From Stegostoma tigrinum (taxonomy: Eukaryota), in assembly GCF_030684315.1 (NCBI RefSeq), contig NC_081367.1:42195973-42259852 (forward strand): 63,880 nt of DNA. The letters run 5' to 3'. The position numbers and the translations under genes were made by a program. Positions 5,735 to 60,630 of the stretch are shown here, in pieces (the stretch's first letter is position 1; each line of letters starts with the position of its first letter). The notes under the pieces were generated by a model. It saw nothing but the letters and a program-made list of their open reading frames with translations. It was not told where the DNA came from and ran no database searches.

Positions 5735-6185
5735 ATGCTCACCGAGCTGATGGGTTTAGTTGCAAATGTTTTGTCACCCTGCTAGGTAACATTGTCAGTG
5801 CGCCTCCAGCAAAGCGATGTGGTTCTGTTCCACTTGTTATTTATGTGCCTCAGTTTGTTGGGGTGTTTGGTACCATTCCTGGTTGTGTTTCTCAGTGGTT
5901 TGTATACAGGATCTAATTCAGTGTGTTTGTTGATAGAGTTCAGGTTAGAATACCAGGCCTGCAGGAATTCCCTGGCATATCTCTGTTTGGCTTGTGCGAT
6001 TATGGATGTGTTGTTCCAGTCGAAGTTGTGTCCCTCTTTGTCCGTGTGTAATGAGACAAGTGAGAATTGGTCATGTCTCTTGGTGCCTAATTGGTGTTTG
6101 TGTATCCTCATTGTCAGTTTTCTTTCAGTTTGGCCTATATAGTGTTTCTCACAGTCTTTTCATGGTATTTTATATAATATTACAA
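5735..6185 (-). mobile_element. Penelope-like element 3' fragment: GIY-YIG endonuclease remnant plus decayed hammerhead
   Basis: Minus strand encodes ..DCEKHYIGQTERKLTMRIHKHQ...FDWNNTSIIAQ...REFLQAWYS..SINKH.ELDPVY. It is followed by CTGACAA-GTTACC/GGTGAC stem-AAAAC (5764-5800). Confidence 0.85.
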
Positions 6186-6274
6186 CTTTCAATATACACT
6201 GTATATGTGTGGCCATGAGTGCTGTTTCTCACTCATCGCTGTGTTTGTGCACCCCCTGTCTTCCCTGCGTTGGT

Positions 6275-7215
6275 ACACCATCAACAAGGCACAATTGAGA
6301 AGTGTAATGGAATACAGTGCACTTGCCTGAATGCAGCAACTTCAGAACACTCAAGGAGGTTGACACCATCCAGGACACAGCTCGACTGATGCCTCATCTG
6401 CTACCTTCGACAGTCCCCACCAATTCAGTGTGTCAACAGTGTGCCCATCTACAAGATACACTATTTCATCACGACTGCTCTGACAGCACCTTCCAAGCCT
6501 ACAGTCTCTGCCACCCAGAAGAACATGCATGGGAAGGCTGCTAATTAGAAATTCCTCTCCAATCACACTTGTTACTATACCACCACTCCTTCATTACTTT
6601 TGGGTGAACAGTCTTGAAACTCCTTTCCAACAGCATTGTGCATGCCACTACAACTGAAAAACTTGCAGTGGTTGAAGAATGCAGCTCACCACCACCTTCA
6701 GCAGGGTAATTATTTGATTGATTAATTTGTTGGATTTACTGTTGTCACATCTACCGAGATACAGTGAAAAGGTGTTGTTTTGCATGCTATACAAGCAGAT
6801 GGTACCATATAAAGTGCATCAGGGCAGCAGAACACAGTGTACAGTATTACAGCCATAGAGAAGGTGCAGAGAGAGAGAGAGAGATCAGAATTAGCTTTTG
6901 AGAAGTCCATTCAAAAGTCTGATAACAGTGGGTAAGAAGCTGTTCACAAGTGTATTCAAACTTTCATATCTTCTACTCAACGGAAGAGGGGGCAGACAGT
7001 AAAACTGGGGTGTGAGGGTCTTTGATTATAGTGGTTCCTTTCCTAAGGAGGTTCCTTTGCTAAGTATAGATGGAGTTAATGGATGGAGGACTGGTTTGCA
7101 TTTTGGAGTGGGCTATGTTCACGACTCTCTGTAATTTCTTGCATTAATTAATGATGGGCAACAAATGCTGCCTGAGCCACCAACACCTACATCCCATAAA
7201 GGAATAAATAAAATT
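6275..7215 (+). mobile_element. 3' end of a CR1/L2-group LINE interrupted by an opposite-strand retroelement tail (~6715-7143)
   Basis: Same family as 26130-27470 (TLKEVDTIQD..; tail GATGGGCAACAAATGCTG...CATCCCATAAAGGAATAAA), split at 6712/7148. Confidence 0.6.
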
Positions 7216-7269
7216 TCTTTGCCGTTTTCTGCGTGGTAAGTTTATTTTGAGCCTTCCCACCTTGGATTT

Positions 7270-7560
7270 TATTCGAATTAGTCAGGAAGGCCACTTTGTC
7301 TCCAGCCCAGATCTTCTCAAACACTTAGACATACTACCCACTCCACACTTTCCGCGCTTGATTTCCTTCCTAAACATCATATATCCTTGAATATTTAGGT
7401 CCCAGTCTTTCTGTTTGCCTCTGTAATGGCTACCAAATCCTACATACCTAATTCTACGTTTGCTATCAGTTCTCCTACTTGTTATGAATGCTACTTGCAA
7501 TCACTACTTTTTAAGCTCTAGCCCCTATCTGCCAGTATACTCTTTTGTTTAGACGCTTTG
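7270..7560 (-). mobile_element. CR1 LINE endonuclease-region fragment
   Basis: Minus translation ..DWDLNIQGYMMFRK..RG resembles the CR1 APE domain. A further degraded plus-strand APE piece lies at ~7975-8530. Confidence 0.6.
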
Positions 7561-8559
7561 ACTCTTTCTCACAAGCTTTGAACATCTTTTTCCTTATTTT
7601 TACCTTGCTTTCCTACCTTGACTTCACTATTTAATTCATCAGAGCTTCCCAAACTTGATTGTTCACCACCAATATTTAGTTTGAAGTTCTGTCTATTGTC
7701 CTTGTTATACAATGTGCCACAGCACAGGTCCCATCATGGTTCAGGTGAAGAATGTGTCAATTTAAGGCCTAGGAAACCCCACAATCAGTAGTTACAGCAC
7801 ATCATTTGCCCTGCCATCCTTACCGTATCTTAATTAATTAATTATTACATTAATTTCATTCCTCTTCCCACTACAATCATCCAACAATCCTCACCACCTA
7901 AGATTCAAATAAAACATGGCATCATTAGTTTCTTACATACAAAAGTGTTTCAAATATGTTTTTTTCTAGATTTCAGCACTTTGCAGACACTCCCTACCTG
8001 CAAGAACAGAAGAAAGGAAAAATGAGGGTAGCACTGATTGTAAAGGATATTAATTTGACAGGATCCTGGCTCAGAATATAATGAAGTAGAAAACCAAAAT
8101 GAAAAATCATTGGACAGCTTAGTTTATAGCTCTCCCAACAGGAATTATATAATTGTATGGAGCATTAGAAAATAAATATTCGTAGCTTGTAACAAAGGCA
8201 ATATAATAATTATGGAGGAGATTCATTAATCAAATTGGCAAAGATGCTTGAAAATGTGTTTGTAGAAAGCTTTCAAGACTGTTTCTTGGGAGCAATATGC
8301 TGTGGAACCAACTTATGATCAAGCTATTTTACATCTTACATTGTGCACTGATGTAGGATTAATTGGTAATTTCACAGTAAAAGATTCAATGGGAAATTGT
8401 AATCATTATACTATTGGCATATAATACAATTATACAAATTTCAAAGTGACTTGCACTAAATACAAATAAAAATCTTAAACAAATCCAACTACATAAGTAT
8501 GGGAGAGAGCTGCTTAGGGTGGATTGGGACTGTATCAAGCAACTAATTTGCAGCCGTCA

Positions 8560-9075
8560 ACATGTCAGTCATGCTTGACCAGCCCATGCTCACAAGCCTT
8601 AGAGAAGTCAGTCTGCCATTACATGTATTCTGCAATTGGACATAATGTATTAAATAGTCTGGACTAAACTAAGAGTTACACTGGAATCCAATCTAATAAC
8701 ATTAGTCAGGCTCACAGTGTGATACATTTGTGTCTGCTAAACCTACATGTATGAACGCAGAGGAACATGTTTTATTTCGTAAGAAGATGTACATGCATTG
8801 CACAATCCTCATGAATAAAAAGGGGCCATGGACACTGCCGATTTCTACTGCATTCCTGTTACCACAGGCTGGCCAATCAGAATCTACTGCTTTGTCTGAG
8901 AATTAAAACTGACATTTTTGCTATATCCCCTCACAAAATATGACACAACCGATCAGCACCATTCTCTCATGCTGAATAAATTGGTGTCTCTTTTTTCCCA
9001 GTCAGTCTGTCAGTTTCTTGTGATTTAGTCCAGATGAGCACAAGATGAAAGTTTCAACTTCTATCTTCCTTTAGC
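8560..9075 (+). mobile_element. Old Penelope-like element 3' fragment (distinct lineage)
   Basis: From 8626 it translates YSAIGHNVLNSLD*TKSY..Q...ISQAHSVIHL.LL, like a PLE GIY-YIG C-terminus. A decayed hammerhead-like CCAGATGA..TGAAAG lies at ~9030-9055. Confidence 0.5.
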
Positions 9076-10359: not shown

Positions 10360-10492
10360 GAGATAACAAAGTGCGAAGCTGGATGAACACAGCAGGCCAA
10401 GAGAGCACCTGAGGTGCTGCTTGGCCTGATGTGTTCATCCAACTTCACACTTTGTTATCTTGGATTCTCCAGCATCTGCAGTTCCCATTATT
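10360..10492 (+). mobile_element. Palindromic PLE terminal-repeat insertion, family A
   Basis: Inverted arms GATAACAAAGTG..GGATGAACACAGCAGGCCAAG / CTTGGCCTG..CACTTTGTTATC plus a ~30 nt tail. Flanking duplication TTGGATTTAATATGAG at 10347-10362 and 10493-10508. Confidence 0.85.
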
Positions 10493-12114: not shown

Positions 12115-12246
12115 CTAACAAAGTGTGTAGCTGGATGAACACAGCAGGCCAAGCAGCATCTCCTGAGATGCTGCTTGGCCTGCTGTATTTATCCAGCTAC
12201 ACACTTTGTTATCTTGGATTCTCCAGCATCTGCAGTTCCCATTATC
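12115..12246 (+). mobile_element. Palindromic PLE terminal-repeat insertion, family A
   Basis: Near-perfect ~50 bp inverted arms plus tail. TSD CAGTGAGAAGACAAAG at 12099-12114 and 12246-12261. Confidence 0.88.
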
Positions 12247-14316: not shown

Positions 14317-14467
14317 GAGTTGAATAGAATTTGAAATGTGGTAATGATTTTAACAGTTCATTTTCTAGTATAACCTCTATTACCAGTTCATGTACTCTAT
14401 TGAAATGTTGTCCTTGATATGCTGAGGGTTTAGATACTTTAAGAAATAAGTATGACTTGATTAGCAT

Positions 14468-14544
14468 CCGAAACGTCAGCTTTCCTGTTCCTAAGATGCT
14501 GCTTGGCCTGCTGTGTTCTTCCAGCTCTACACCTTGTTACCTCA
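14468..14544 (+). mobile_element. Family A PLE end fragment starting within the hammerhead core
   Basis: CCGAAACGTCAGCTTTCCTGTTCCTAAGATGCTGCTTGGCCTGCTGTGTT... Confidence 0.75.
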
Positions 14545-15890: not shown

Positions 15891-16034
15891 GCCCGCTTCC
15901 AATTATGGGTGTCGTCTGCTCAGTTCACTATGATATAAGTAATTAATGCATTTCAGGAAGAGCAGAGGTCCAAACATTAACCTTTCAGAGTTCCACTGTA
16001 AACCTTCTTTCATACTGAAAAACATCTGCAAACC

Positions 16035-16640
16035 AAGATAACAAAGTGTGGAGCTGGATGAACACAGCAGGCCAAGCAGCATCTTAGGAATACAGAAGCT
16101 GGCGTTTCGGGCCTAGACCCTTCATCAGAAAAGGGGGGTGGGGAGAGGATTCTGAAATAAATAGGGAGAGAGGGGGAGGCGGATGGAAGATGGATAGAGG
16201 AGAAGATAGGTGGAGAGGAGAGTATAGGTGGAGAGGTAGGGAGGGGATAGGTCAATCCGGGGGGGGGGGGGGATGAAGGTTAGTAGGTAGGAAATAGAGG
16301 TGCGGCTTGAGGTGGGAGGAGGGGATAGGTGAGAGGAAGAACAGGTTTGGCAGGCTGGAATGAGCTGGGCTGGTTTTGGGATGCAGTGGGGGGAGGGCAG
16401 ATTTTGAAGCTTGTGAAATCCACATTGATACCATTGGGCTGCAGGGTTCCCAAGCAGAATATGAATTGTTGTTCCTGCAACCTTTGGGTGGCGTCATTGT
16501 GGCACTGCAGGAGGCCCAGGATGAACATGTCGTCTGAGGAATGGGAGGGGGAGTTGAAATGGTTCATGACTGGGAGGTGCAGTTGTTTACTGCGAACCGA
16601 GCATAGGTGTTCTGCAAAGCGGTCCCCAAGCCTCTGCTTT
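16035..16640 (-). mobile_element. Penelope-like element 3' end: GIY-YIG C-terminus, pyrimidine tract, hammerhead and family A terminal repeat
   Basis: ORF 16654-16280 reads RLGDRFAEHL..LPVMNHFNSPSHS..ILGL..EQQFIFCLGTLQPNGINVDF, contiguous with the family A repeat. Confidence 0.9.
16098..16128 (-). ncRNA. Minimal hammerhead-ribozyme-like core (family A; cleavage triplet mutated GUC>GCC)
   Basis: CUGAUGA-A-GGGU(CUAG)GCCC-GAAA-CGCC. Helix I is weak. Confidence 0.6.
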
Positions 16641-17473
16641 CTGCTCCCTGTCACTTAGAAAATTTTGTGGCCACATCTCCTTTATTCTATGAGCTCTAAC
16701 TTTGGTCGTAGGTCTGTCACACAACTTAACTGAATGCCTTTTAGAACTTCATGTGCAGCACACCAACAACGTAACCCTTCTGAATACTCATTGTTAACTT
16801 CTCAAGAATACAAGCAAGTTGGTTAAATATGATACACCCTTAAGAAATATGGGATGGCTTTTCTTTTGCATATTGGGCCACATGGCTATTAATTTTGCCC
16901 TGCGCTATAAATTAGTTTGTGTAAAATTGTAAAAGCACTGGTATTTCTGTAAGAGGTACAATATTATAATGAAGATTGCCATCCAAGTAATTCAATGGAG
17001 AGTCAGACTTTGTCTGGAATCTTGCCACTGTTGGGTTGCAACAGAAATAGTCCATTCCAAATCATAATCAACGGCAAAAAATATTGGTTGGTTGGTTGCC
17101 AACAAATTTACACAAAGAATTTGATCAATCATTTTATGCAATAATACATCTGAACAATAAAACTAAGACAATTATAAGTGAGAAAGGGATGAGTAGCAAA
17201 CCAGCCTTTCTGAGTACACCTTCAAGGAATAAATAACTGGCAAGATGTAAGTCGATTATCTATCTGGAGACTGAAAACCAGAGGCGGAATGAAAGTAGAA
17301 TATCCCATCCCTTCGCTACAACGTTTCATAAACGCAATCAGTGTAATAAATCTGAAATCTCCCAAAGACAGATGATGTGATAGTCTAACTAATGATGGTT
17401 ACCTTGTCACTCTAGTTTCTCCGCAGGCAACTCATCACGAATTTGAGGCTGGGGATCAGTGGACAAGATTTCT

Positions 17474-18070: not shown

Positions 18071-18081
18071 GTGTTGGAAAC

Positions 18082-18208
18082 ATGAGCAGTGCAGGAGACC
18101 TGAAGGCAGCCAGTGATCGGAACAGCGAGAGCAAGCCGGCCAGGACACCGTGAGCAATGGACAATGATCGGGACTGGCGCTGATTACCCGATCGTCCCCA
18201 GATTTTAA
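18082..18208 (+). other. Three upstream ORFs in the putative FAM43A 5' leader (18082-18153, 18157-18183, 18164-18208)
   Basis: ATG-to-stop frames read directly; they depend on the TSS lying upstream of 18082. Confidence 0.55.
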
Positions 18209-18233
18209 CAACCCAAATCTCCCAATACCAGCG

Positions 18234-19301
18234 ATGTTACCTTGGAAGAAAAACAAATTGGATTTGGTCGAGAAGCGGCAGCCGAAACAGCTCGGTTACT
18301 CGGTGAGTTTGAACTACAGCAGCCTGACTTCCTTCACCCGTGCGTGTCCGGACCTGGTGACGGAGAGCGCTCTCAATCGAGTCTGCAGCATGTTTAAATC
18401 CCGGAGGAGGAAGATCACCATCACTGGGGAAGATCCCACCTATACAGTCTTATACCTCGGCAATGCCACCACCATCCAGTCCAAAGGGGAAGGCTGCGCC
18501 GATGTGGCCGTGACCAAAATCTGGTCCAAAAGTGAACAGGGTAAAAACAGCACCAAGATGAAGCTGACCATCAGCTCTCAAGGAATCCGCATGGTCCATG
18601 TAGACAGCAAGGCGAAGAGACCGGGCCATCTCTACCTTTTGCATCGGATCACCTACTGCGTGGCGGACCCCAGATCGCCCAGAATCTTCGCCTGGATCTA
18701 CCGGCACGAACTGAAGCATAAGGCGGTCATGTTGAGATGCCATGCCGTGCTGGTCTCCAAAGCCGAGAAGGCGAAGGCGATGGCCCTGCTCCTGTACCAG
18801 ACCTCCAGTAACGCCCTGGCCGAGTTTAAGAGACTCAAGAGGAGGGACGATGCCAGGCACCAGCAGCAGAAACTGATCGGCGAGCAGACCATCCCCCTGG
18901 TGCCCCTCAGGAAGCTGATGAACGGCCAGTGCAGCTACAAGCCCCCGGTGGAAAGGAGCCGGAGTGCCCCGAAGCTGGGCTCCATCACTGAGGACCTGGT
19001 GGGAGAGCAGCTGGAAGAGAAAGCTGAACTGGAGCTGAGTCTGGAGTACGAGGACATTCTGGACACTGCGGAAGCGTCGGAAAGAAACGAGCAACAGGAC
19101 CTTTGTGAAATGATCAGTGATCTGGGGCAGCTGACTATAGGGAATGACGTCCAGTTACTGAGAGCTGACCTGAGAGTGACCAGGTTACTGTCTGGGGAAA
19201 GTACTAGCAGCGAGTCATCCCTGGGAAGTGGGGCGAGTGATCAAGAGCCAGTGATGGCAACGGATGGCAGTGAAGACGGCGACCTGCAAGAATTGGGATA
19301 A
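18234..19301 (+). CDS. FAM43A: Protein FAM43A (PTB/PID-domain protein), single coding exon, 355 aa
   Basis: MLPWKK.., EDPTYTVLYLGNATTIQ, RHELKHKAVMLRCHAVLVSK, ALAEFKRLKRRDDARHQQQ and KPPVERSRSAPKLGSITEDL match FAM43A. Adjacency to LSG1 favours A over FAM43B. Confidence 0.96.
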   Translation: MLPWKKNKLDLVEKRQPKQLGYSVSLNYSSLTSFTRACPDLVTESALNRVCSMFKSRRRKITITGEDPTYTVLYLGNATTIQSKGEGCADVAVTKIWSKSEQGKNSTKMKLTISSQGIRMVHVDSKAKRPGHLYLLHRITYCVADPRSPRIFAWIYRHELKHKAVMLRCHAVLVSKAEKAKAMALLLYQTSSNALAEFKRLKRRDDARHQQQKLIGEQTIPLVPLRKLMNGQCSYKPPVERSRSAPKLGSITEDLVGEQLEEKAELELSLEYEDILDTAEASERNEQQDLCEMISDLGQLTIGNDVQLLRADLRVTRLLSGESTSSESSLGSGASDQEPVMATDGSEDGDLQELG

Positions 19302-32300: not shown

Positions 32301-32403
32301 GCTGGTGTGGGAGGTGATGACTCCAGGTGAGACCCTTTATTCTTATGTTGAACTTTTATTTATGCTCTCTCAAGTCTGTAAAACACGTACTTATGTATCC
32401 TGT

Positions 32404-32540
32404 AAAACCAAAAGAACTGCGGATGCTGTCAATCAGGAACAAAAACATAGTTGCTGGAAAAGCTCAGCAGGTCTGGCAGCATCTGTGGAGGAGAAAACAG
32501 AGTTAACATTTCGGGTCCAGTGACCCTTCCTCAGAACTGA
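32404..32540 (-). mobile_element. PLE terminal repeat, family B
   Basis: Same sequence as the arms at 55600-56030. Weaker copies at ~43465-43560 and ~57890-58000. Confidence 0.8.
32501..32538 (-). ncRNA. Minimal type I hammerhead ribozyme candidate (family B)
   Basis: AGUU-CUGAGGA-A-GGGUC(ACUG)GACCC-GAAA-UGUU-AACU: helix I AGUU/AACU, 5-bp helix II, GUU triplet. Confidence 0.7.
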
Positions 32541-37678: not shown

Positions 37679-37832
37679 NNNNNNNNNNNNNNNNNNNNNN
37701 NNNNNNNNNNNNNNNNNNNNNNNNNNNNNNNNNNNNNNNNNNNNNNNNNNNNNNNNNNNNNNNNNNNNNNNNNNNNNNNNNNNNNNNNNNNNNNNNNNNN
37801 NNNNNNNNNNNNNNNNNNNNNNNNNNNNNNNN
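37679..37832. other. Assembly gap (N run)
   Basis: 154 N bases. Confidence 0.99.
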
Positions 37833-39385: not shown

Positions 39386-39584
39386 AGGCTGCAAAGAAAT
39401 CTCTCTCTCACACTCAACACACACACACGCATGGTATCTGTCCCTCTCTTGCCCCTCACACACATACGCTCTCTCTCTACCTGCTCACACACACACTCTT
39501 ACCCCCCCCCACCATGCACACACACACTCTTTCCCACTCTCACATACACACACTCTCTCTCTCTCCCATCACACCCCCTCAACA

Positions 39585-39585
<1 letters not shown>

Positions 39586-39628
<43 letters not shown>
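39586..39628 (+). repeat. (AC)n microsatellite
   Basis: About 21 perfect AC units. Confidence 0.95.
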
Positions 39629-39629
<1 letters not shown>

Positions 39630-40012
39630 TTATATTTTCAGATGCATTCAATTTTGTTCAAAAAACACAATTTATAGACAGTCAATATGGTGTTTTAGAA
39701 ATTTCTACTTTAGAAATAAAACCAGTCTGACTCCAAACTAAAACACAAACAAATTGTAAACAAGACCCCACACCTAACATGCATTGTCTGATCTAAAATG
39801 TTATCTCTTCTTTACACTGATTAAACTTTTAGTTCTCTCTGAACCATGACTAGAAAGGAATTTGGAGATTTACATATACATGTTAATCAGTTAAAACCTT
39901 CTCACTGATTATAAATTTAACAGCATCATAGGCTGTTTATATGTCCTCATCAGTGGTGTGAATCTTTGATCTTTTACTTATAAATTCTGTGTCTGAAACT
40001 ATGTCTCTCACT

Positions 40013-40051
40013 AACACCTGAAGAAGGACTGAGGCTCCGAAAGCTTGTGTT
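40013..40051 (+). ncRNA. Minimal type I hammerhead ribozyme candidate (family D)
   Basis: AACAC-CUGAAGA-A-GGA(..)UCC-GAAA-GCUU-GUGUU: 5-bp helix I AACAC/GUGUU and palindromic AGCU helix III. Confidence 0.7.
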
Positions 40052-41797
40052 TTCAAATAAATCTGTTGAACTATAACCTGGTGTTGTGTGATTTCTGACC
40101 ATGTCCACCCAGTCCAACACCAGCACCTCCACATCATTTGTAAATTTGTAGCCAGATTGCGGGCTGGCAGGCAGGCAGCAGGAAGGACACTTGCAGAATT
40201 TTACAGGGTTCCCTCAACCTAAAATTCCACAGGCGAGTAACCATGACATTTTGACAATAGTTCCATAAAAACCTGGATCAGGGAACGTTCAAATTTTGTT
40301 ACCTCCAATGTTCAAACTCTGGAGCTGCTCTTCATAATGCAAATAATTTTGTTGTGGAATGATTGTTTTCCTTTGTTCTCAATTTTTCCCAATCCTTTTT
40401 TTTTAGAGGGAGGAGCTAAAGCCTTTTCTCCAGCGTAATGTCATCTGAGGGTGCAGTAAGAATTTGCTATTCTGTAGACTACTGTTATGGTTGGAAGTAG
40501 AAAGTAGCATTCCTGTTATCTTCTGTGAAGATATTATAGAAGGAGAGTGAAGTGATCGGATGATATCATCTTATAGAATCTCTGCCAATTCTGTCACTCG
40601 TACTCCAAAGCCACTCACACATAAATAAAGCCAGGACTGAGATCAGAATCTCATCCTTGCAGACATGCCAGTGATTTTCTTTTAAGAAACCAGTTATCCA
40701 AAGACAACTGATCACAGAGCAATCAATTGACATTGGGGAACAAAGGTTAGAAAATGCTTTGAGTGCTTTGAAGAACTTTGGTTTAAGCAGCTTTTCCACT
40801 TAACTGCTGCAGTGATAACCCTCACTGTGACAGATACATGTATTGCATCAAGTGAAAAAGTATGGACAGCTGCCAAAACCATGCCGGTGATCCTGACTCT
40901 GGGATTATCTGAGGAGACAGCAATCAAGGAAGTATGGGGAACAAGATTCTGGAAAGTTATGTGGGAGGAAAGATTCACGTATTCACATTCCATATGGGGC
41001 TTGCATGACCATTCCTGCTGAACCAGGTCCTACAAAGAAGCGGAGAAACAAATTTCTGTTTTTGCTTCTTTGCCATTCCAGTGTATTGATGGGAAAGCTT
41101 GAGTTAAAGTTCTAATCAGGCCAGAAATTATGGTGCCCACAGACCCAAATTTACATATTGAAAGGACTCACGGACTTTGGACAAACGTTCAAGCTGTAAA
41201 TTTGCAATTGGCAGGATCCGGATTGCTCAAGGACAGGAAAGTAACATAAACAATTGAAACTACTCACCTCCTGAGTTTCCCCTGAATGGATAGGGTTAAA
41301 ATTACCACCATCTCCCACCACCCCTGCAATCCACAAGCCAAAGCTAATCAGGGTCTGGTAGATACAGAAAAGAGAAAGGAAGGAAGGAATGATGAAAGAC
41401 AACTGGCATGCCAATCATGAAAGATAATTGGCTGAAAAACCTCCAAACTGGTATGATCAACCAAGTGGTGCAATGATATTAATAGAGAAAACAGTAAAAG
41501 CCTCACACAAGAAAAAAGATAAGGGTAGTACCATTATTCTCACTACACATACAGTAATTAATTATCAATTGCTTTCCTCCTCCCTTTATTCTTCACTTTG
41601 ATTTGACTTAATGTAGTCACATGTACCTAAGAACAGTGAAAAGCTTTGTTTTGTGAGCAGTACAAGCAGATCACAGCATGCAAGGATGTACAGATCATAA
41701 GGTGCTTAGACACAGCAAGACAATACAAGGTTATGGCTGCACAGGAGGTGCACAAAGCAAGTTCAACATGAGCAAGATCAAAATTATTTGAAGTTGG

Positions 41798-42001
41798 AGA
41801 TAGTAGGTACTGTCGATGCTGGAGTCTGAGATAACAAGGTGTAGAGCTGGATGAACACAGCAGGCCAGGCAGCATCAGAGGAGCAAGAAAGTTGACATTT
41901 TGGGTCTGGACCCTTCTTTAGACGAAGGGTCCAGACTCAAAACATCGTGTTTCCTGCTCCTCTGACACAGCCTGGCCTGCTGTGTTCATCCAGCTCTACA
42001 C
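41798..42001 (-). mobile_element. Palindromic PLE terminal-repeat insertion, family A variant, inside another retroposon tail (~41605-42085)
   Basis: Inverted arms meet at two decayed head-to-head hammerheads (GACCCTTC-TTAGAC-GAAGGGTC). Degenerate TSD ATTATTTGAAGTTGGA/ATTATTAAAGTTAGA. Confidence 0.8.
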
Positions 42002-42084
42002 ATTATTAAAGTTAGAGAGGTTCATTCAGCAGCCTTAAACGGCTGGGAAGAAGCTGTTCTTGAGCCTGTTGCTGTATGTGTTCA

Positions 42085-42397: not shown

Positions 42398-43879
42398 AGC
42401 AGAAGCTCTTGGGAGTTCAACAATAAATAATACTCCTTTGTAGTCAGGCTTCTTGAGCTATTATACCAGCCCAAGGGAAAAGAACTTCCCTTTCCTCTTA
42501 CATAGCCTTCAGGAGAATCTCACAGCAGGCATTGCAAAATGTAGACCCCACTTTCTGCTTGGTATCTGACAATTCCAGTGTGATTGTGACTGATTGGCAG
42601 AGGTTGACTGGTGTTCCTGGGTTGCAAAAGATTAAATGCAACCTGCAATCCTTTCAAATAAAGTGCCAGGAAGCAGAGACCCTGATGGTTCTATTGTGGG
42701 TCACAAGTGGGGCAGATTCTCCTGTCTGCTGGCACATAAAATTTGATGTTTTATCTGTGTGTGCATATGTAATGAATTATGAAGAAAATAATCATGAGAA
42801 AACCCGACTGAATGTCAAGCAGAAGTACTTCCTGCTTTTTGGGCAACATCCATGTTTAGTCTCCAAAAGAGATTCTGCCCATTCTTTCAGTCAACTGAGA
42901 ACAGCTAACACCACCATTAGAAAGGTCAAGAGAAAAATAGAAAGGCCAGACATGTACAGCAATGAAAGAGCTCTAAAAATACTTCAGTTCAATGATGTTA
43001 TTGAATGAAGCAAATCATTGCATTCCAGTGTAATTCATTGGCCACATCATGTTTTTATTGTTGCATGCAACCTTAGGCATCCATGAAAGGAAATCCCTGC
43101 AGCAAATTCTGGAAAGTAGTCTTGATGTTGATCTGATGGCAAGTTAATGAGGCCCTGGAGTTAAAATTTCTACTGTAATTAATGTGCTTCCAACTCACTA
43201 ACCCAATCAAGAGCCCCCAAACCATCCAAATTTACACTTAAACTATTAATCCATCTTTTCTCTTTACAAATGTTGACCCGTATTTTCCGTAATGAATTTA
43301 ATCATAAGTGCTACATACAATGAATATTCTAAAGATAAGTACAGAATCCACTTCATGGTATTGCTACCAAGCTTAACATGGGCCATTTTAGTGATACCTC
43401 TTTGCAAACAACGCTCCAACATCAAACATATCCCACTGGCAGTTGCCAGTCCCTACATAGGTAATCTAAAACAGAAACAGAAATTGCTGGAAAAAATTAG
43501 CAGGTCTGGCAATATGCATAGAAAGAAAGCACAGTCAACATTTTGGGTCCAGTGACCCTTATTTCAACACTATTTATGCAATTACAGCCCTCAACCAGAT
43601 ATGCAAGTCAAATCAATTTCCTTATCAGTGAACCTTGCAGATCCATTCTAGCTACATGCAAGTTAGTGACATTTATTTTTATGACTTACGTTGATGTCAT
43701 GAAAAAATGTAGTGTAAGCTTGTAGAGGACTACTGGGAATTACCAGCCCATATCATCCAGCATAGGGAACAATGGATCAGCAGTTTCACTGGACCCTCCA
43801 TCTCTGTCAGGACCCAAGTGCTCCTAGGGATTCAAATGATCCTCCCAGCAGACTGAATTCCAAAAGAAAACTAAAGGAC

Positions 43880-45430
43880 TCTGAAAGACACCCTTGTGCA
43901 GGCCCATCAAGCATCAAGTGAAACCTCTTTGGATGTCATGGCAACAAACACCTTCATGATATCATTTGTTTATAGAGACCCATACTGAAACTGAAAAGGC
44001 AGGTCCCTATTACATCAAAGACTTTGAGCTATTGTGCCACTCCCTCATGCAAAACACAGCTGTGCCACCTGTGAAATAACGTTGCTTCTGTAGTTCATTG
44101 CGTATCATCAACTGTAATCTGAGACACTATTCGGTTCAGCAGTTTCCATATTGTAAACATGTAGAAATCTCCACGTTTCGGCTGGAAACAGAAAATTTTG
44201 TTAAAAATGTCCCAACCAGCCACCTACGAGGAAGACTTCTCCAGTCATCATACTAATTATGATCACTCAGTGCCAGATAGAAATGGTGAAGAGGTTCTCG
44301 GTTTGGCCTTAAGGAGTATCTTCACTCAAACACATGTCTCCAAACAATAGGGGCATTACCATTCAGCCCACGGTGTTGGAAATACTCAACTTATCCATGC
44401 TCCCTTGTTGGCCACCCTCACCTGATACAATTCTTAGTCCTGGAAGACATCTCATATTATCAACATAGGCCATCATTTATTCACATTGCCCTTTATCTTC
44501 CAGTCATCAACAGTCAAGGAAGATGTGATAGAACTCCCTTAAGGCCTGACAATGCAGCCAGGTGAACATGCAGTAAGACAATAGACTGTATTATTGTAAT
44601 TATATCTATCTATAATATTCCTGTGGAAGAATTTATAGATGCTTTTATGGTGCCATCCACACAGTTGTCACCCATGGTTACCAACCCGCCTCTATCCATG
44701 CCTTCATAGACAGAGTGCAGCATTTCTCAAGAAATATAAATCATCTAGTGACCCTGATACAGAAAACCATCTCATCCAGACTATTCAGTCTGCTTTCAAC
44801 CTGGCTCGGGAATTTTTCTTTGAAACATTCCCTCACAGTTGACACTTGGATAAGGGAGAAGTGCATGAAAAAGACTGACCAGAAGACTACCTCAGGACTC
44901 AGTGCTCACCCAATGCTGTTCAACAAGCATACAAATGACTAACCAACAACCATAATCTCACACGTTTACCTGTGCATCAGTTGTGCCACCCAAGCTCCAT
45001 CCTTCTGCACGCAAGATCTGAGCCTTGCCAAAGACTTTGCAAAATTATCAGATTACTGCACCACATGAGATCACAAACTGAATTACTCTAAAACCATTTC
45101 AGAGATAATAGGAACCGCAGATGCTGGAGAATCTGAGATAACAAGGTGCAGAGCTTGATGAACAAAGCAGGCCAAGCAGCATCACGGGGGCAGGAAGGCT
45201 GACTTTTTGGGCCTAGATCCTTCTTCAGAAATTCTTGTTATGTCTTTACTCTAAAACCACATTTTGTCTCCACAATGCCAGTGCCAAAAAGAATTGCACA
45301 TCTCCATAGATGGCCAGAGGCTAAAATATGATTCCAACCCAACATACTTGGGCGTGGCTCTTCCTTTCAGGGACATCTGAAGCAAATAGCAGCAAATTAG
45401 ATTAATAATTCATTCAGCACAACCACTGTG
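43880..45430 (+). mobile_element. Degraded Ingi/Vingi-like LINE (APE and RT remnants)
   Basis: Collinear remnants ETH..F.L..HAKH (~43975), QHRPSFI (44461), PQ.SVL.PMLFN (~44890) and NPTYLGV (~45337). Confidence 0.55.
45101..45245 (-). mobile_element. Family A PLE end with short inverted remnant
   Basis: Tail, arm and decayed hammerhead, then CTTGTTAT. TSD TTACTCTAAAACCA at 45083-45096 and 45246-45259. Confidence 0.8.
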
Positions 45431-45785
45431 GCATTTCTTGGCAATATTGTACATTTGGGAGAGAATCTGAGGAAACAGGGATGCTGGGATTACCAAGCAC
45501 TGCAAAAGATGGGGCTACTGAAGTACAGCTGCACTGTAATCTTAAAGTGATCTCAGCACTACACTGTTTCACAAGTTTACTTAGCAAAAAAAATGCCAAT
45601 ATTCAGTGGAGGGAGGTGAACAAAGAGGAAGGCTTAGGAAATACCAAATAAGTGATATGCAGTCATTTCCAAGTTCTTCCAATCACACAAAAGATTTTTT
45701 ATCAGTTCACTCTCAGGGGAATTCAACGGATTCACTTTTCATTGCTGCATCTCATCCTGATGATCAGACTCATTGTGCTTGTCTC

Positions 45786-45989
45786 GGAGATAATAGGAAC
45801 TGCAGATGCTGGAGAATCTAAGATAACAAAGTGTGGAGCTGGATGAACACAGCAGGCCAAGCAGCATCTCAGGAGCACAAAAGCTGACGTTTTGGGCCTA
45901 GACCCTTCATCAGAGAGCCTGAACCGTCAGCTTTTGTGCTCCTGAGATGCTGCTTGGCCTGCTGTGTTCATCCAGCTCCACACTTTGTA
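45786..45989 (-). mobile_element. Palindromic PLE terminal-repeat insertion, family A
   Basis: Near-perfect ~65 bp inverted arms; hammerhead CTGATGAAGGGTCTAGGCCCAAAACGTC (minus, 45883-45913). TSD CATTGTGCTTG(T/C)CTC at 45771-45785 and 45990-46004. Confidence 0.9.
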
Positions 45990-48954: not shown

Positions 48955-49083
48955 CAGAGATAGCAAGGTGTAGAGCTGGATGAACACAGTGGGCAAAGCA
49001 GCATCAGAGGAGCAGGAAGGCTGACGTTTTGGGCCGAGAGCCCTGTTATCTCAGATTCTCCAGCATCTGCAGTTCCAACTATC
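48955..49083 (+). mobile_element. Family A PLE insertion with asymmetric inversion
   Basis: Inverted arm joined to TGTTATCTC plus tail. TSD TCTGATAATTTC at 48943-48954 and 49084-49095. Confidence 0.8.
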
Positions 49084-50891
49084 TCTGATAATTTCGAGAC
49101 ACTGATGGAGCAGAAAGAGGCAGTAGTTAGATAAATTTGAGTTGTATCACTGTACATGTAGAATCTTATGCCATGCTTTTAGATGATGCAACTGAGGGCA
49201 GCCTATAAGAAAGAAATGGAAGGGAGTCAAGGCTAAATCCTGGGCAATACAAGAGATAAAGGACAGGAGCAGGAGGATGGGTAATAAATATAAATGAAAT
49301 ACTAGTATTTTATTGGAATATTTTACTGTTCAATATAAATTTACCATGGCCAAGATTTTTCCTATCGCCATTTGGTAGAAGCTGCTAGACCATGGTGTAG
49401 GCATGTGTGCGTAATGGGATCTGTCAAAATAAAATGAACAACTTTGATTCCACTGGCTTTCTACTGTGTTCCAATCCTGACTTCCTATCTGAATGTCATC
49501 AGGACCCTGTGTGCGACTTTTTCCTGAAGCCTGAGGAGGTTAGTGGGCAGTTACAATGTCATGAAAACCTGGCCTGCCCCCAATCCCTGCCCAGTGCCTT
49601 CTCTCCTCACTCGCTGACAGCAAGGCAAAAATGCATCGAAGTAAAACCAAGGAAAAGTCATTGGAAAGTTCCACATTAACCTCACTGCAATGATTTGTGG
49701 AACAAAGCCAAAAGTATGATCCTAGTCTCATATTGAGCCCCTTTTTCTGGAAGCCTGCGCACAGCCCTGGCATTGACCTGGCATTTCTAGTCATGGAAAA
49801 ACCCGCACCAGATACACAAATTCTGTCTGAATGACACCCAAAGGACGGATCACTTCTTCCTGTGCAGGATATTCATTGTATGGTAACACTGTTTATGAGT
49901 CTGTCTTGTGTTGACCTCAGATTAGCTGGGAGTGCAAAACAAAATCTGCCTGCTTACATGCAGAACAACTACGTCTGCTGAATATTAGAAGTCTGACTGA
50001 GCGCAGGAGCTGGAGAGTGAGGGGGCCTGGAGCATATTGGGAAGGCTGGGACTGGGCCAGGAAGATTAGGGGAGCAGTGGGATTTGCCCGCCACACACTG
50101 CTGCTCTGGCATTTTGGCAGCATCAGGCAATGTGGCAGGCAGCCCACCTATCCTGAGGCCAATCAAAGCTTTTGTGACCAATTCAATGCCCCCTTAAAGA
50201 TATCTTTACACTGTTATTGGTGTTTTATCAGATGTACTCTGGTGGACCTTTCCCTGGGCTTGTGGGATGCGTTTTTGTAGCTCATGCTGGGTCCCCACAG
50301 TGGGAAGTGACATCTTGTGGAAACATCCCACTGCTCCCGACAAGCATTCCCACCCCCCAACCCTTGCCTGATTAGCCCCTGTGAGCCTGGGTGCACTTAC
50401 TCGGCTTCTGGGGCCTCTGCCATTGCTGCTGGTATTCCTTCAATTGGCCAGCAGCTCTTGAAAGTATGACTTCAATCCCTCAAAGGAAAGGTAGCCTTGA
50501 TGGCACACAGTTAATTGCCTGCTGCAAGTAAGATTGTGTTGAGGTGGACCTGACTGCCAGCCCCTCTTTCATGAGCATGTCTGTTTCTGGCAGTCCATGG
50601 AGGAGGGGGCACTTGGTGTCCGCTGTTATCTTCGGAGCATGTGCTAACTGATGGACACCATCGGGGTCTGCAGAGCATCATCACCCCAGGTTATGGTAGT
50701 TTAATTTAAATTTGTTACCTTTCTGTTGAAGTTTTGTTTTGTGTTCCCCATCCCTTTAAGGGGCTGTCACATGTTTATTCACCGGTTAACTGAATCAGTT
50801 TGTTTTCACGGACCTCCTATAACCAGCTGAGATGAAGGTACCCTCAAATTTCCCAGCCAGTGAATCAGGAGGGCCCATGCCGTGAAGTCCC

Positions 50892-50974
50892 AGATAACAA
50901 AGTGTGGAGCTGGATGAACACAGCAGGCCAAGCAGCATCTTAGGAGCACAAAAGCTGATGTTTTGGGCCTAGAC
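50892..50974 (-). mobile_element. Family A PLE end, single arm
   Basis: AGATAACAAAGTGTGGAGCTGGATGAACACAGCAGGCCAAGCAGCATC..GGGCCTAGAC. Confidence 0.8.
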
Positions 50975-53974: not shown

Positions 53975-56560
53975 ATAAGATAGATAGGGGCAGAATTAGA
54001 CCATTCAGCCCATCGAGTCTGCTTCATCATTCAATCATGGCTGATATGTTTCTAAACTCCATTGTCTCGCTTTCTTCCTGTAACCTTTCATCCCCTTACT
54101 AATCAAGAATCTATCTATTTCTGTTGTAAATATACTCAATAACTTAACCTTCACAGCCTTCTGCAGCAATGAGTACCATAGATTCACCACCCACTGACTG
54201 AAGAAATATGTCCTCAACTCAGTTCCAAAGGATCATTCCTTTACTCTGAGCTGTGCCTTTAGCTCCCAGTCTCTCCTACTAGCGGAAACATCTTCTTCAC
54301 ATCCACTCTCTCCAGGTCTCTCAGTATTCTATTAGTTTCAATCAGAATCCCCTCATCCTAAACTCCATCGAATACAGAACCAGAGTCCTTAACTACTTAT
54401 CATACGATGAGCCCTTCATTCCTGGAATCATTCTTGTAAACTTTCTGGACCCCCTTCAAAACCAACATATCCTTCCTTCGATACAGGGAACTGCTCACAA
54501 TATTCCAAATGCGGTCTGACCAGAGCCTTGTACAGACTCAGCAGTAAATCTCTGCTCTTGTATCCTAGTCCTCTTAAAATGAATGCAAACATTGCACTTG
54601 CCTTTCTAACTGTCAACCAAACCTGCATGTTAACCTTAAAAGAATCCTACACTAGGAATCCCAAGTCCATTTGTTCTTCAGAAACCTGAAGCCTTTCGCA
54701 TTTAGAAAATAGTTTAGGCCTGTTGGTCTCTATTCTTCCTCTCAAAGTGCATAAACTCACAATTCCCCCTATTGTATTCCATCTGCCACATTTTGCCCAC
54801 TCTCCTAGATGGCTCAAGTCCCTCTCCAGGCTCACCATTTCCTCAACACTACCTGTCCTTCTACCAATCATTGTGTTGCAAACCTAGCAATGATGTCCTT
54901 AGTTCCTTCATCCAGATCATCAGTGTATAATATGAATACTTATGGTCCTAACACGGACCCCTGTAGAACTCCACTAATCACCAGATGACATCTTGAAAAA
55001 AGACCCCTTTATCCCAACTCTCTGTCTTCTGTCAGCCAACTAATCCTCTAAACATCCCAGTACCTTGCCCCTAACACCATGGGCTCTTATTTAATAGCTT
55101 CCAGTGTTGACCCTTGTCAAAGGCCTTCTGGAAATTCAAATAGATCACATCCACTGGTTGTTCTTTATCTAACTTGCTCATTGCTCCCCAAGGAATTGTA
55201 ACAGATTTGCCAGGTGTGACCTCTCCTTGATGAATAGGGCTGACTCAGCCCCATTTTACCTTGCACTTCCAAGTATTCCATAATCTCATCCTTAATAACT
55301 CTCTAAAATCTTACCAATAACCAAGGTCAGGCTAACTGGTTTATATTTTCCTGACTTCTGCCTCCCTCCCTTCTTAAACAAGGATGTTACATTAGCCATT
55401 TTCCAGTCCTCTGGCCCCCTGTCTGACTATCGTGATCCTGAAAGATCTACAGTATCCCCAGCTATCTCTTTCAGAACTCTGGGGTATAGTCCATCTGGTC
55501 CAGGTGATTTATTCACCTTCAGACCTTTCAGTCCCTCAGCCTCTTCTCCTTCTCTTGAAGTTGTGGTATGTTGACTAATACAAAGTACGTCTTCAGTTCA
55601 AAAACAAAGTTGCTGGAAAAGCTCAGTAGGTCTGGCAGCATCTGTGAAGGAGAAAACACAGTTAGCGTTTCGGGTCTTGTGACCCTTCCCCAGAACTAAT
55701 GATGGCTGGGAAAATGTCAGTTTATATGCAGAAAATAGGGAGGTGGGTGGGGTAAGGAGTAAACGATAGAATAGAGCCTAAAGAGAGCCCAATTGTCTTT
55801 CTCTCTCTTTGGGCTCTATCTTATCATTTACTACCTACCCCACTCACCTCCTCATTTTCTGCATATAAACTGACATTTTCCCAGACACCACCAGTTCTGA
55901 GGAAGGGTCACCAGACCTGAAACATTAACTCTGTTTTCTCCTTCACAGATGCTGCCAGACCTACTGAGCTTTTCCAGCAACTTTGTTTTTGTTCCTCATA
56001 TACAGCGTCTGCAGTTCTTTTGTATTTTTTTACCTATTCAGTTCCTCTGCCATTTCTTTGTTCCCCGTTACTACTTCACCAGCCTCATTTTCAATGGCTC
56101 AATGTCCACTCTTGCCTCTCTCTCTTACCTTTTAGATGTCTAAAAAAAGCTCTTACAATCTTCTTTTACATTACTAGCTAGCTTACCCTCATATTTTATC
56201 TTCTCCTCTCTTACTGCTTTTTTAATTATCCTCTGCTGGATTTTAAAGACTTCCCAATCCATTGGCTTCCCACTAATCTTTATGACATTGTATGCTTTTT
56301 CCTTCTTTTTAACGCTGTCCCTGACTTGTCTTGTCAGCCATGCTTGCCTTCTTCTCCCCTTATGCGTTTCTTCTTCATTAGGATGAATTTCTGCTGTGTC
56401 TCTCAAATTATCCCTGCTGTTTTACCAGCTAGGCTCTTTTTCCAATTAACATTGGCTAGCTCCTCCCTCATATCTTTGTAGTTTCCTTTACTCAATTGTA
56501 ATACTGTTACATCTGACTCTAACTTCTCCCTCTCAAACTGCGGGGTGAATCTATTATATC
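53975..56560 (-). mobile_element. Degraded CR1 LINE (~2.1 kb) interrupted by a family B PLE insertion
   Basis: LYKALVRPHLEYCEQF, FFSQWVVNLW, YEGKLASNVKEDCKSFF. Confidence 0.9.
55600..56030 (+). mobile_element. Long palindromic PLE terminal-repeat insertion, family B
   Basis: ~190 bp inverted arms (55600-55787 vs ~55803-55990), each with a decayed hammerhead (plus-strand CTGAGGA 55897..GAAA 55919), and a one-sided tail. TSD TACGTCTTCAGTTC/TACCTATTCAGTTC (55586-55599, 56031-56044). Confidence 0.88.
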
Positions 56561-58129
56561 CATACCAACAGGTAAAAGTACAGGTGCCCCTGGTTGTGAG
56601 AATGGGGTTGGAGGTATTCTGATAGGATAAGTTTGGTCAAGGCAAGAGGTTATCTATAGGTTTATCTTCTTGTGCTTTCCTAGATTAATACAATGCCCTG
56701 ACACTCACCTGCTCTCCTTAAGGACAAAAAACAGATGTTCAAAACTGATTGAACCTTCCTGTTGGTCACACAAGGATTGGGTTGGAGTTTATGGCCATTC
56801 TGGTAAATCTGTCCTGGAATTTAACGTGTGCAAGGTCCAGTGCAGATCCCCCATATTGAAAGGGATTAATTTAACAATCAAAATATTTTTTACTGTGGAA
56901 AGGTACTGACAAATTAAGATTGAGGGTGCAAAAATGGATGAAAGTGAGTCTATTCCTCCATGGACAAGGAGATGTTATCACCCTTAGCTGAGAATCCCAG
57001 GATGCAAACTCATAGCTGAGGAACAATGATGTTGGAGTCAGTAGCCTAGACCAAGTTAAATCTTTGCAGCCCCAGAACACAACTGCAGGCATCCTCTGGA
57101 AAGCATTCCTTGCACAGACCTTTTCAGCAGCTTTATTATTGCATTCCTTCCAGGAGGTGGGCTGTTTGCTGCAGCTTTCTTCACAATCATGGCCTGGTGT
57201 TATTAACATACAGACTTAGGGTAATACGTGGCAGGTAACATGTGTGCCACCTGGGATGCTAGGGGATTGATATTATATAGAACAATGACCTCCGAGTATT
57301 AATTCCACACGCAGGCATTGTATAATTTTTGCTGCATAAAGTTGAGACAATGGGTAAATGGGAGGAGTCTACAACCCCCAGTTCTACAGACTGCAGGGAG
57401 TTTCTCACAGCAAGCAAAAGTACCTTGAAGACTGTGACAGCTGAGATTGATGCAATGTCAAATTGTCTGGCCAGGACAAGAAAGATCTTCTAAGGATTCA
57501 ATAGCAGCTAACAGCCCTACAATAGGACAAATTCATGAGGCTTATTGGTGTTATTCATTTGTAATAACACTAGCTGGTAGCAATTCAGAGTTTGTGTTAC
57601 TGTGAATTGCAAGGATTGTGCGCAGATGTTGCAACTTCATTAGAGAGTGGCAATAAGTTAATTCCTTAATGTCACCTTTGGCCCAGAAATAGATCTCAGC
57701 AGGTTTGGGAGGAATTCAAAGAAATTTATGAAATGAAGCCCAGCTATTAAATCAGTAAAGACCGTTGTTTGCAAATGTGGCATCACTTCAGAGTTCAGTC
57801 CTGCATTTTCCACTGCACCTCTGAACCCCCTGCATGACCATAAAAGTCAAATCTACAGTGTAGCATCAGTAAAGGTGAGAAAATGTAAAAGCAAAATATT
57901 GCAGATGGTGGAAATCAGAAATAAAAACAAAACCTCACAGCTCTGTTAGAATGTGGACAGAAACAGAGTTAATGTTTCATGTTGATGGCCTTTCACAAAA
58001 AGGCAAATCTGACGGTACCACAAGCAATGTTGAACCGATTAGAAAATTTAAAATCATGGGCTACTAATTCTAAGAAGATTACAGCAAGGGAAGGAACTTG
58101 ATTGTTATTCATTAATGAATCATTTAATG

Positions 58130-58830
58130 CCTCTTCTAGTCAAGCTTTTTGATGCAGCAATAAGCTTGGCACTGCTCTCACAATGTGGAAGATTGCATGC
58201 AAATATCCTACCCATAGATGTGTTGAGGCTTAGATAGCTAATTATTGCCTTATCTGCCTTCTCTGAATCATCACTGGACAAATAAGAGCCTTAATAATGC
58301 CATCAAACATTGCATACTCATCAATAAGCTGAATAAACAACACCTCAATGTCAAAGGATATGTATGTAGCTGCTGTCCATATCAAGGCAACATTTACCTA
58401 AGCATGACATCAAGCAGAACTATCAAAGTGGTGGAAGGAAGGTGTCAAACTTTCCAATGGCTGGAGTCATGCCCAAGAAATAAGTGATTTAGGTTGACAA
58501 AAGTCAATTGACATAGCCTTAGAATATTAGTCTTCTGAGATGTGTTCTTCATTTAACCATCCTTAGTTGCTTCATCTTTGACATCCTTCCATCATAAGAT
58601 CAAGAATAATAATGATGCCTTTATGTTCAGTTCCATTCACAACACTCATTACCGAGCCTTTCCCATTATCATACAGGCTTAGGTTGATAAATGGCAGATG
58701 ACAAGTGCCAGAGAGTGACCTTGTAAAAAGAAAGCTCAGCCAAATCTCCCTTTCTGTCATAGGCACCAGCATCACCCTCTGGAAGTCACCAATGACCAGA
58801 AGCTTAACTGACCCAGTTAAAATTGCTCAG
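58130..58830 (+). mobile_element. Degraded LINE of the 26130-27470 family
   Basis: Collinear remnants (ATATCAAGGCAACATTT = DIKATF-like; AATGGCTGGAGTCAT). Confidence 0.5.
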
Positions 58831-60164
58831 GTTATTTACCTGGTCTAGAGCCATGGGAGTTGACAATTTGAAATTTTAACATGATCCTCTTTTTAAAAAG
58901 TTAGTAGTGGCTTAAGCTCCAATTAAAGAGAAACCAATAGAATTACAATTGTGTTAGCCCAGATTTTCCAAGGGTCAGACATTGATTTTATTACAGTGTA
59001 GGTGGGAATTAACCTTGGGAAGTCTGTAGAATTCCTATTGTAGTGGGCTGTAAAGGAATTGTCTGCAAAATTGAAAATTCCAGAGGGGAATTCCTCATTG
59101 CTTGGAAAACACCAAAAGTTTCCATATAAATCAAAAAACTTGGAGGATACTGATGAAGTTAGGTAAATAATGAGTCAGGAAATGTAGGCCTATTAAATAC
59201 AGCTGATGGCTAACTTCCCTGAGTAAGCAGTTCCCATTATCACTGTATTTATCTCACCTGCTGACCTGACAGCCCCAGGACCTAATCACCCCCTGCCCTG
59301 CTCTAGACATGATTTCAGTATAAGCTAACACCATTCACCCAGCCAGTACCTGCTTCCCCCACCAGCTGCTCTGGACCTGATCCTCATGCCTTCCATTAAG
59401 TAGCTACTCCTCCTTCCCCTTGCCACCGGAACCTGTCCTGAATGCCCAAACCAATACTCACCCTCCTGCACCCTTGCTAGACCTGATTTCTCTTAGCCAC
59501 CCTGCCTTAATGTAAACATTGCATCATTTATCTGGTCCCTTGCCACCTTGTACCCTATGAATTTAGCACCCTCTCATTTACTGAGCTACAACCTACTTAC
59601 CTGGCACCCTACCCAGATGGCATCCTTCCTACCTGACATCCTACTCAGCCAAAACACTATGTACAAAATCCACAAAATATTGTGTGTTAACTCACAGGCA
59701 TTGATTTTCCATTCTTGATGTCTATTTACGAATTTGAGGTGGTATTTAATGGAGGTAATTAGGAGGTCCGGAGAGTTGGCAAGAGGCAAATGCCATCTCA
59801 TTGACCTCGCTGACACTGGCCTAACAGAGATAGAGACAGGGAGGAGGAATGACCCTCAATCACTTTTCAACCCATTTAAATGCCCTCCTGCCATTGAACC
59901 CAAAAGGAAGGATGGTAATAAATTCCACCCTTCATTTTCTTCTCAGGTGTAATACTGGAAAACCCCTCAATCAAATTTTTAATGTAGGCACACATCATTT
60001 TTAAAATCTGTCTTTCTTGACAATCAACAATGGGTTCGTGGTCAACATTAGACTCTTAATTCCTACAATTGATTGAACTCAGACTTTACCACTTTCCCAC
60101 CAGATTACCACATGGTGGGATTTGAACCCAAGTCCACACAACATTATCTAGGTCTCTGGATTAG

Positions 60165-60630
60165 CAAAAGGGAAGGAATGGGAGTTGGTTCACAATTTGA
60201 AAGTCTTGAACTCAATATTGAGTTTGGATGGTTGTAAACTTAATATTGAGGTCAACATCTTAAAATTGTGAAGCAACTCCCATTTCTTCCCTTTCTTTTA
60301 GCTTTATCTTTTATATTCTCTCTCCCTTCCCCCAATCTCAGTGGAACTGTCCGTTCTTTCAAGCCTGGCAGGTAGACACACCATTGATTTACCATTCTCA
60401 CATTCCAATCACTTAATATGAACTATCAGCGTCTTTTGTCTTCCAGTACTCCAGCCCTTCATCCCCTGGTCCCCACCACCACACCACCCCACAACTATTG
60501 CATAAGTGCTGCTCCCTCCACATTTCATGCAGTTCTAATGAAGGGTCATTCAGACTCGAAACATTAACTTTCCCTATCTCCATGAATGCTGCCTGCATTG
60601 TTGTGATCTCCAGTATTTGCTGTTTACAGT
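60165..60630 (+). mobile_element. PLE 3' end with 5' inversion and decayed hammerhead (family C)
   Basis: Minus ~60200-60240 encodes SLQPSKLNIEFKTFK (GIY-YIG end), mirrored on plus from 60243. CTAATGAAGGGTCATTCAGACTCGAAACATTAAC lies at ~60535-60569. Confidence 0.65.

Follow-up and report, generated by a model that had tools for sequence, protein, structure and literature searches.

The DNA analysed here, called the window below, is a stretch of 63,880 nucleotides from the shark Stegostoma tigrinum (NC_081367.1, positions 42,195,973 to 42,259,852, forward strand), and it contains a series of small hammerhead ribozyme motifs which, judged from sequence and surroundings, appear to be terminal (3′) pieces of Penelope-like retroelements (PLEs). 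Ten full-span sites are convincing as genuine minimal type I hammerhead motifs on the basis of the comparisons given below. In all likelihood these are 5′-truncated and mostly mutated PLE 3′ ends, that is to say, insertions that were probably dead on arrival, and not working ribozymes. A preliminary description of the same DNA had proposed about six PLE lineages, each with its own minimal hammerhead, which together would form a high-copy repertoire of self-cleaving RNAs.

Eleven full-span hammerhead sites were assessed in the window, of which ten were judged real and one, at 9031, is doubtful. C3 of the core lies at 5798, 16128, 32534, 41921, 45228, 45913 and 55693 on the minus strand and at 40018, 55897 and 60535 on the plus strand. 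When a structured descriptor composed of core, helix II, palindrome, UH and helix I was scanned over 4301–63880, it gave one perfect match (mean of 20 shuffles 0.0) and six matches with at most one deviation (shuffle mean 0.05, maximum 1). Hammerhead-like cores occur at every place given in the preliminary description, the one near 9030 being unconfirmed, and a further core, 45228(−), is added to its list. An unpaired base after A9 and a G10.1–C11.1 pair closing helix II occur in all ten real copies. The motifs were sorted into families A, B, B′, C and D and a doubtful E, and the core CUGANGA/GAAA/UH is that of the family majority in A (from reads), B (from the window alignment), C (a single copy) and D (from read-through proteins). 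Helix I measures 2 bp in A, 4–5 bp in B, 5 bp in C and 3 bp in D, and its second pair is C-G, U-G or U-A among the A and B copies. The palindromic positions 15.2–16.2 are CG in the family-A majority and in 55693, GC at 40018, and TG, CA or AG in six decayed copies. The helix II types previously named for each family are correct, and the ACGU or AGCU palindrome, the relation to minimal hammerheads of PLE terminal repeats and the remark that the class is already known are all borne out.

Family A has helix II GGGU/GCCC, with a variant GGGUC/GACCC at 41921; family B comprises 32534, 55693, 55897, 43560 and 57994, and family B′ is represented by 60535. A, B and B′ are homologous outside the core and have a common tail. 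Downstream of the cut, the similarity of A to B and of A to B′ exceeds that of shuffles (p 0 and 0.003 of 300), while B and B′ compared in that segment alone show no excess (p 0.11). C, D and E are related neither to A/B/B′ nor to one another (the whole-row MAFFT alignment puts family D wrongly, and D was excluded from its use). Since A, B and B′ are mutually related, the six lineages shrink to three or four unrelated groups, and a count of six is fair only if E is real. The site of family E carries U4>A and a helix II of 1 bp, lacks the palindrome and a helix I in register, and no second copy of it was found within the window, so that its earlier designation as a PLE hammerhead stays unconfirmed.

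The assignment to PLEs was examined by tblastn with 28 shark PLE proteins and by two hidden Markov models (HMMs). Clear GIY-YIG endonuclease remnants were recovered at two places only, 5785–6219(−) and 16349–16690(−), and a weak C-terminal endonuclease stub of 22 codons was found at 60181–60246(−) in family B′ (independent E-value, iE, 0.16); by the same searches no endonuclease remnant lies upstream of 9030 and 40013. An HMM match at 41624–41776(−) (iE 0.027) was rejected, as the GIY-YIG features are absent. Therefore, of the four families said to sit just downstream of GIY-YIG remnants, two (A and D) clearly do so, a third (B′) retains only about 20 codons, and the others have no remnant. 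Pfam assigns no domain to either GIY-YIG stub, and both were recognised through homology: protein searches with them returned reverse transcriptase (RT)-endonuclease proteins named from Chiloscyllium, Stegostoma and Rhincodon. The family-D remnant is 57% identical to shark RT-endonuclease proteins (HMM iE 8e-57), and the family-A remnant is 86% identical to the relative P0008. A PLE-type RT is seen in the relatives P0001 and P0006 (PF00078) and as a YIDD-bearing region in P0008, and not in the window itself. Because a Cys linker ahead of the endonuclease is present in the family-A relative P0008 and absent in the family-D relative P0001, this motif by itself suggests that A is Neptune-type, the linker being that of Neptune/Nematis, and D Poseidon-type (PMC8557442).

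In family D, the last codons of the RT-endonuclease open reading frame (ORF) encode the 5′ half of the core at 5762–5801(−), and the stop codon falls in loop II. The relatives P0001 and P0004 terminate at the same codon as the window ORF, and P0002 reads through the site with residues compatible with an intact core. Relatives that reach the site have EDVT or DDVT..GDETS where the window has DNVT..GDKTF, and these residues fit an intact G8, G12 and palindrome in family D. The elements and motifs of the window are as follows.

5728–6219 (−): family D, 5′-truncated end of a putatively Poseidon-type PLE, GIY-YIG remnant running into the terminal repeat.
5762–5801 (−): family D hammerhead with a 6-bp helix II, dead; G8>A, G12>A and a broken palindrome, all CpG-type.
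7609–7642 (−): isolated descriptor match with a long loop II and one deviation, outside every recognised family.
9025–9060 (+): site E, degenerate hammerhead-like motif, doubtful.
10363–10492 (unstranded): family A fold-back micro-insertion, tail at right, 16-bp target-site duplication; both arms begin downstream of the cut site.
12115–12245 (unstranded): family A fold-back micro-insertion, 16-bp target-site duplication.
14468–14543 (+): family A end, truncated within helix II.
16036–16690 (−): family A, putatively Neptune-type PLE 3′ end with GIY-YIG remnant, terminal repeat and hammerhead 16099–16130 carrying U16.1>C.
18168–19301 (+): PID_2 (phosphotyrosine-binding-like, PTB-like) domain gene, single exon, intact, which we take to be FAM43-like.
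32404–32547 (−): family B end with tail; hammerhead 32501–32538 with intact core, palindrome changed to a wobble form.
40013–40051 (+): family C hammerhead, the one copy free of deviations, with a helix II of 3 bp, the palindrome AGCU and a helix I of 5 bp.
41798–42008 (unstranded): fold-back of family A in its GGGUC/GACCC variant, with the junction lying in the hammerhead core; minus arm with three deviations.
43460–43561 (−): family B end, truncated at helix II.
45097–45245 (−): family A end with tail and G12>A, its start 3 nt ahead of the core; 14-bp target-site duplication.
45782–45989 (unstranded): family A fold-back, 11-bp target-site duplication; minus-arm hammerhead 45884–45915 with G12>A.
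48955–49083 (unstranded): family A end cut in helix II with a tail-only inverted arm; 12-bp target-site duplication.
50889–50974 (−): family A end, truncated within helix II.
55600–56036 (unstranded): family B fold-back with 189-nt arms, a hammerhead on each strand (C3 55693− and 55897+), 8-bp flanking repeat.
57880–57994 (−): B-like end with tail, old and degenerate.
60160–60660 (+): family B′ end with a short inverted arm holding the last ~20 endonuclease codons, terminal repeat and tail; hammerhead 60531–60569 with G5>A and a broken palindrome.

In many of the copies a sense arm and an inverted arm are accompanied by a 35-nt tail at one side. Target-site duplications of 11–16 bp were found in 5 of 16 elements and one of 8 bp in another; with random flanks, the maximum in about 500 draws was 10 bp and repeats of at least 8 bp arose in 4%. 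Among 17 aligned arms none begins at the first base past the cut: the starts of 11 fall within −13 to +18 of C3, those of four lie 11–24 nt beyond the cut, and two arms reach further upstream. From these observations the following course of insertion is inferred. The RT-endonuclease of the element would nick the target DNA and begin reverse transcription near the RNA tail; synthesis would usually halt after 60–200 nt, frequently within the hammerhead or immediately ahead of it, and the complementary DNA (cDNA) may often fold back or switch template, which would yield the inverted arm before repair leaves the 11–16-bp duplication. The RNA template was probably uncleaved, because no arm begins at the cut site. 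Inserted copies would subsequently decay neutrally, chiefly at CpGs on G12 and the ACGU palindrome, and the ribozyme itself is likely to be of importance only where master elements elsewhere give tandem transcripts, as a weak cutter that may be dimeric or protein-assisted.

The state of the copies agrees with decay. Core, palindrome and UH are all intact in one of the 11 full-span copies (40018), and CUGANGA/GAAA/UH is kept in three, 32534 and 55897 having the core together with an altered palindrome. Sixteen deviations were counted in the ten real copies, ten of them CpG-type, with G12 affected four times, and the core positions show no sign of protection from mutation. In the fold-back copies 45913, 55693, 55897 and 60535 the motif folds alone, the probability of helix I/II being ≤0.02 within the whole insertion, that is to say, these four are predicted to bury the ribozyme motif. 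In predicted folding, 32534 in its context retains helix II and loses helix I, and 40018 is weak even as an isolated motif (0.15); the rows for family D and 45228 were out of register and are left out. The active dimer form is predicted to stand above the two-strand minimum in the three copies tried, by 11 kcal/mol for C and B and by as much as 28 kcal/mol for A. Most copies here are predicted to be incapable of self-cleavage, and no direct tandem hammerhead copies occur in the window.

What the family looks like outside the window was examined, for A alone, by aligning four sequencing runs to 15980–16720. U16.1 is restored at 16102 in 96% of the contig depth of run X3 and in 1403/1464 and 821/850 raw reads, so the U16.1>C of the window is private to the 16099–16130 copy. 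An intact GAAA-CGU-C was also found in loose-end consensus lines from three organisms; it is for these positions that the majority sequence is shown to be intact, the listing of differences being 114 rows short of complete. In run X3, 208,465 contigs align to family A, and the raw-read depth is ~5,000 to 28,000 from 1,938 million letters, which would correspond, as a rough estimate, to ~10^4–10^5 copies if the genome measures 3–4 Gb. For family A the high copy number proposed in the preliminary description is thereby borne out, with a majority sequence that is intact. A search of sequencing runs for 39640–40140, around the family-C copy, listed no RNA run carrying this stretch; small shares in runs guessed to be RNA were left out of account, and the contigs of run X16, whose RNA nature is likewise a guess, cannot reveal expression or RNA ends.

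Moreover, the GGGU..CCC hammerhead motif was met at 110 metagenome loci which, by their flanks, are not shark, and 31 of the 110 match shark PLE proteins by tblastn. After dereplication 81 rows were left, of which one was dropped for a short flank. Position 17, unspecified in the search, is C or U in all 80. Helix I positions 1, 2 and 3 pair in 90, 88 and 93% of the rows, with several pair types and compensatory changes; the observed pairing is 3.06 bp against 2.06 in a control slid by +2, which the alternating helix I lifts, and the 0 of 1000 shuffles obtained for this helix is not a probability, as the rows are related. The GIY-YIG domains ahead of these near-identical hammerheads are 40–50% identical to that of shark family A, and such hammerheads behind GIY-YIG indicate that the type is common to PLEs of other organisms. 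In viral contigs, neither the hammerhead pattern nor P0008 gave a match, and a degenerate shark flank motif gave 0 matches in viral and metagenome contigs.

Several alternatives have to be set against decayed PLE ends. That the motifs are chance matches in repeats unconnected with ribozymes has virtually no probability: the Rfam search of the window contains no hammerhead family at E ≤ 5, the site at 9031 may be chance and the match at 7642(−) probably is, but the descriptor matches lie far above the shuffles, independent loci show covariation and obey the NUH rule, and the placement behind GIY-YIG agrees with the published pattern, so that chance is refuted for all of A, B, B′, C and D and is conceivable for E only. 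(Three Rfam microRNA matches, at 41846–41994, 55729–55861 and 60160–60303, were rejected; they lie below the gathering score and are fold-back arms.) It is very improbable that the short fold-back units are a non-autonomous family which retrotransposes as a unit, in the manner of a short interspersed element (SINE) or a retrozyme. They are indeed discrete units carrying duplications, and the joint 16084/16089, which matches 12115–12245 and is the best supported of the listed opposite-strand joints, recurs (163 raw reads, 98 starts); however, the window units differ in junction and arm length, the joint sits on a 3-bp mini-hairpin where it would arise independently, as fits independent cDNA snap-back, and PLE insertions have been described with just this combination of an inverted arm and a tail at one side (PMC8557442). 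A functional dispersed repertoire, whose intact copies would cut host or read-through transcripts as trans-dimers, is also unlikely. It could draw on the very high copy number and intact majority of family A, on the one intact copy per 64 kb (40018), which would extrapolate to many genome-wide, and on tandem units at the stem I edge elsewhere (30 and 13 contigs), which could form cis-dimers. Against it stand the ten of 11 full-span copies that deviate, mostly at CpGs with the core unprotected, the helix I of just 2 bp in family A and the energetic cost of the active dimer. It has further been reported that monomers of PLE minimal hammerheads are inactive and their dimer activity is low (PMC4209133; dimer cleavage is summarised in the review PMC6765202), that anole RNA-seq shows no ends at the cut site (PMC11167929), and that 1 of 9 dimer elements of Xenopus cleaves (bioRxiv 10.64898/2026.07.22.740005). 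With such weak published activity, no direct tandem and fold-backs predicted to sequester the motif, the self-cleaving RNA repertoire of the preliminary description is unsupported.

The preferred account, in which the motifs are decayed PLE ends, has points against it as well. Family C has neither an endonuclease nor an RT remnant within an element spanning roughly 39400–40130, and its PLE origin is read from motif architecture only, although the missing remnant of C and E can be explained by truncation. No clear duplication was seen in 11 of the 16 elements, whose boundaries are approximate; the arms were found through similarity to the hammerhead region, which biases their start positions; and minimal hammerheads are poorly judged from folding energies. 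Besides, 40018 being free of deviations and 32534 having an unaltered core, single copies could cleave in trans or with protein help. A separate idea, put forward tentatively and with considerable doubt, is that the A and B copies mark a discrete RNA/cDNA boundary at the 5′ edge of stem I, not at the cut site: 3 of 12 family-A arms begin 1–3 nt ahead of C3, and tandem and inverted joints at 16128–16131 recur in contigs. The joints 16129/16131 to 16036 (30 and 13 contigs) link the 3′ end of one family-A copy to another whose start is the stem I edge, that is, ~95-nt tandem units elsewhere in the genome which resemble nascent retrozymes. At the same edge, families B and B′ have CAG (32535–32541(−), 55890–55896(+), 60528–60534(+)), which resembles the intron end at this position in D. 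virilis Penelope (PMC4209133) and may be plain helix I sequence.

Minimal hammerheads (min-HHR) in the pseudo-long terminal repeats (pLTRs) of metazoan PLEs were described in 2014 by Cervera and De la Pena (PMC4209133), who counted ~4,000 copies (6 families) in coelacanth and ~9,000 (8 families) in Xenopus, mostly solo. The shark motifs share with them the CUGANGA/GAAA/UH core, the unpaired base before helix II, G10.1–C11.1, the palindromic 15.2–16.2, a short helix I, many families per genome, and a predominance of solo truncated copies with some opposite-strand pairs; the 2-bp helix I of family A falls at the lower limit of published lengths. As in the PLEs with a C-terminal endonuclease (Penelope/Poseidon, Neptune) of Craig et al. 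2021 (PMC8557442), 5′ truncation is heavy, an inverted 5′-truncated copy lies adjacent, and a tail of 30–40 bp stands at one end, whereas the shark units are extremely short (arms of 60–200 nt) and many have clear 11–16-bp duplications. For Poseidon of Anolis (PAc; Frangieh et al. 2024, PMC11167929), uncleaved RNA is the insertion template and the hammerhead cuts only when PLE protein is present; the terminal-repeat hammerhead and tail signature are alike in the shark, and an uncleaved template fits the 0 of 17 arms at the cut, but the PAc ORF begins in the hammerhead and the shark family-D ORF ends in it. Non-LTR (long terminal repeat) retrozymes, reported from one chondrichthyan genome among others (bioRxiv 10.64898/2026.07.22.740005), likewise derive from PLE terminal repeats and have a type I hammerhead; they are direct tandems, in contrast to the solo or inverted copies of the window. 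The searched parts of the text and supplement of PMC4209133 have no shark entry, the available part of PMC6155905 mentions sharks only for the name, and no paper on shark PLE hammerheads was found in a literature search that did not extend to Repbase and Dfam, and some supplements may list them.

As for the rest of the stretch, it is repeat-rich vertebrate DNA in which the PID_2 gene is the one host gene recognised. Positions 1–4137 are a 4-kb G-rich tandem array with a period of 17–18 bp and a GC skew near 1, and the open frame of 1310 codons there is spurious, as it arises from the array. A GC-rich 54-bp tandem repeat is present in four copies at 32088–32302, ~100 bp from a family-B end, and an assembly gap of 154 N lies at approximately 37679–37832.

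The finding carries little weight as new knowledge: that a vertebrate genome can hold many families of PLE hammerheads has been on record since 2014. What it adds is a shark, in which the dispersed copies are mostly decayed, so that motif counts overstate ribozyme activity. Should the suggested boundary at the stem I edge be a genuine RNA 5′ end, whether start site or splice acceptor, or else a fixed RT stop where the ribozyme is folded, the tens of thousands of dead copies would serve as a genomic read-out of the action of the PLE hammerhead, and the short tandems beginning at that edge would amount to nascent retrozymes in the shark. The copies provide data on the role of this hammerhead, and their arm starts argue that the RNA which was inserted was uncleaved.

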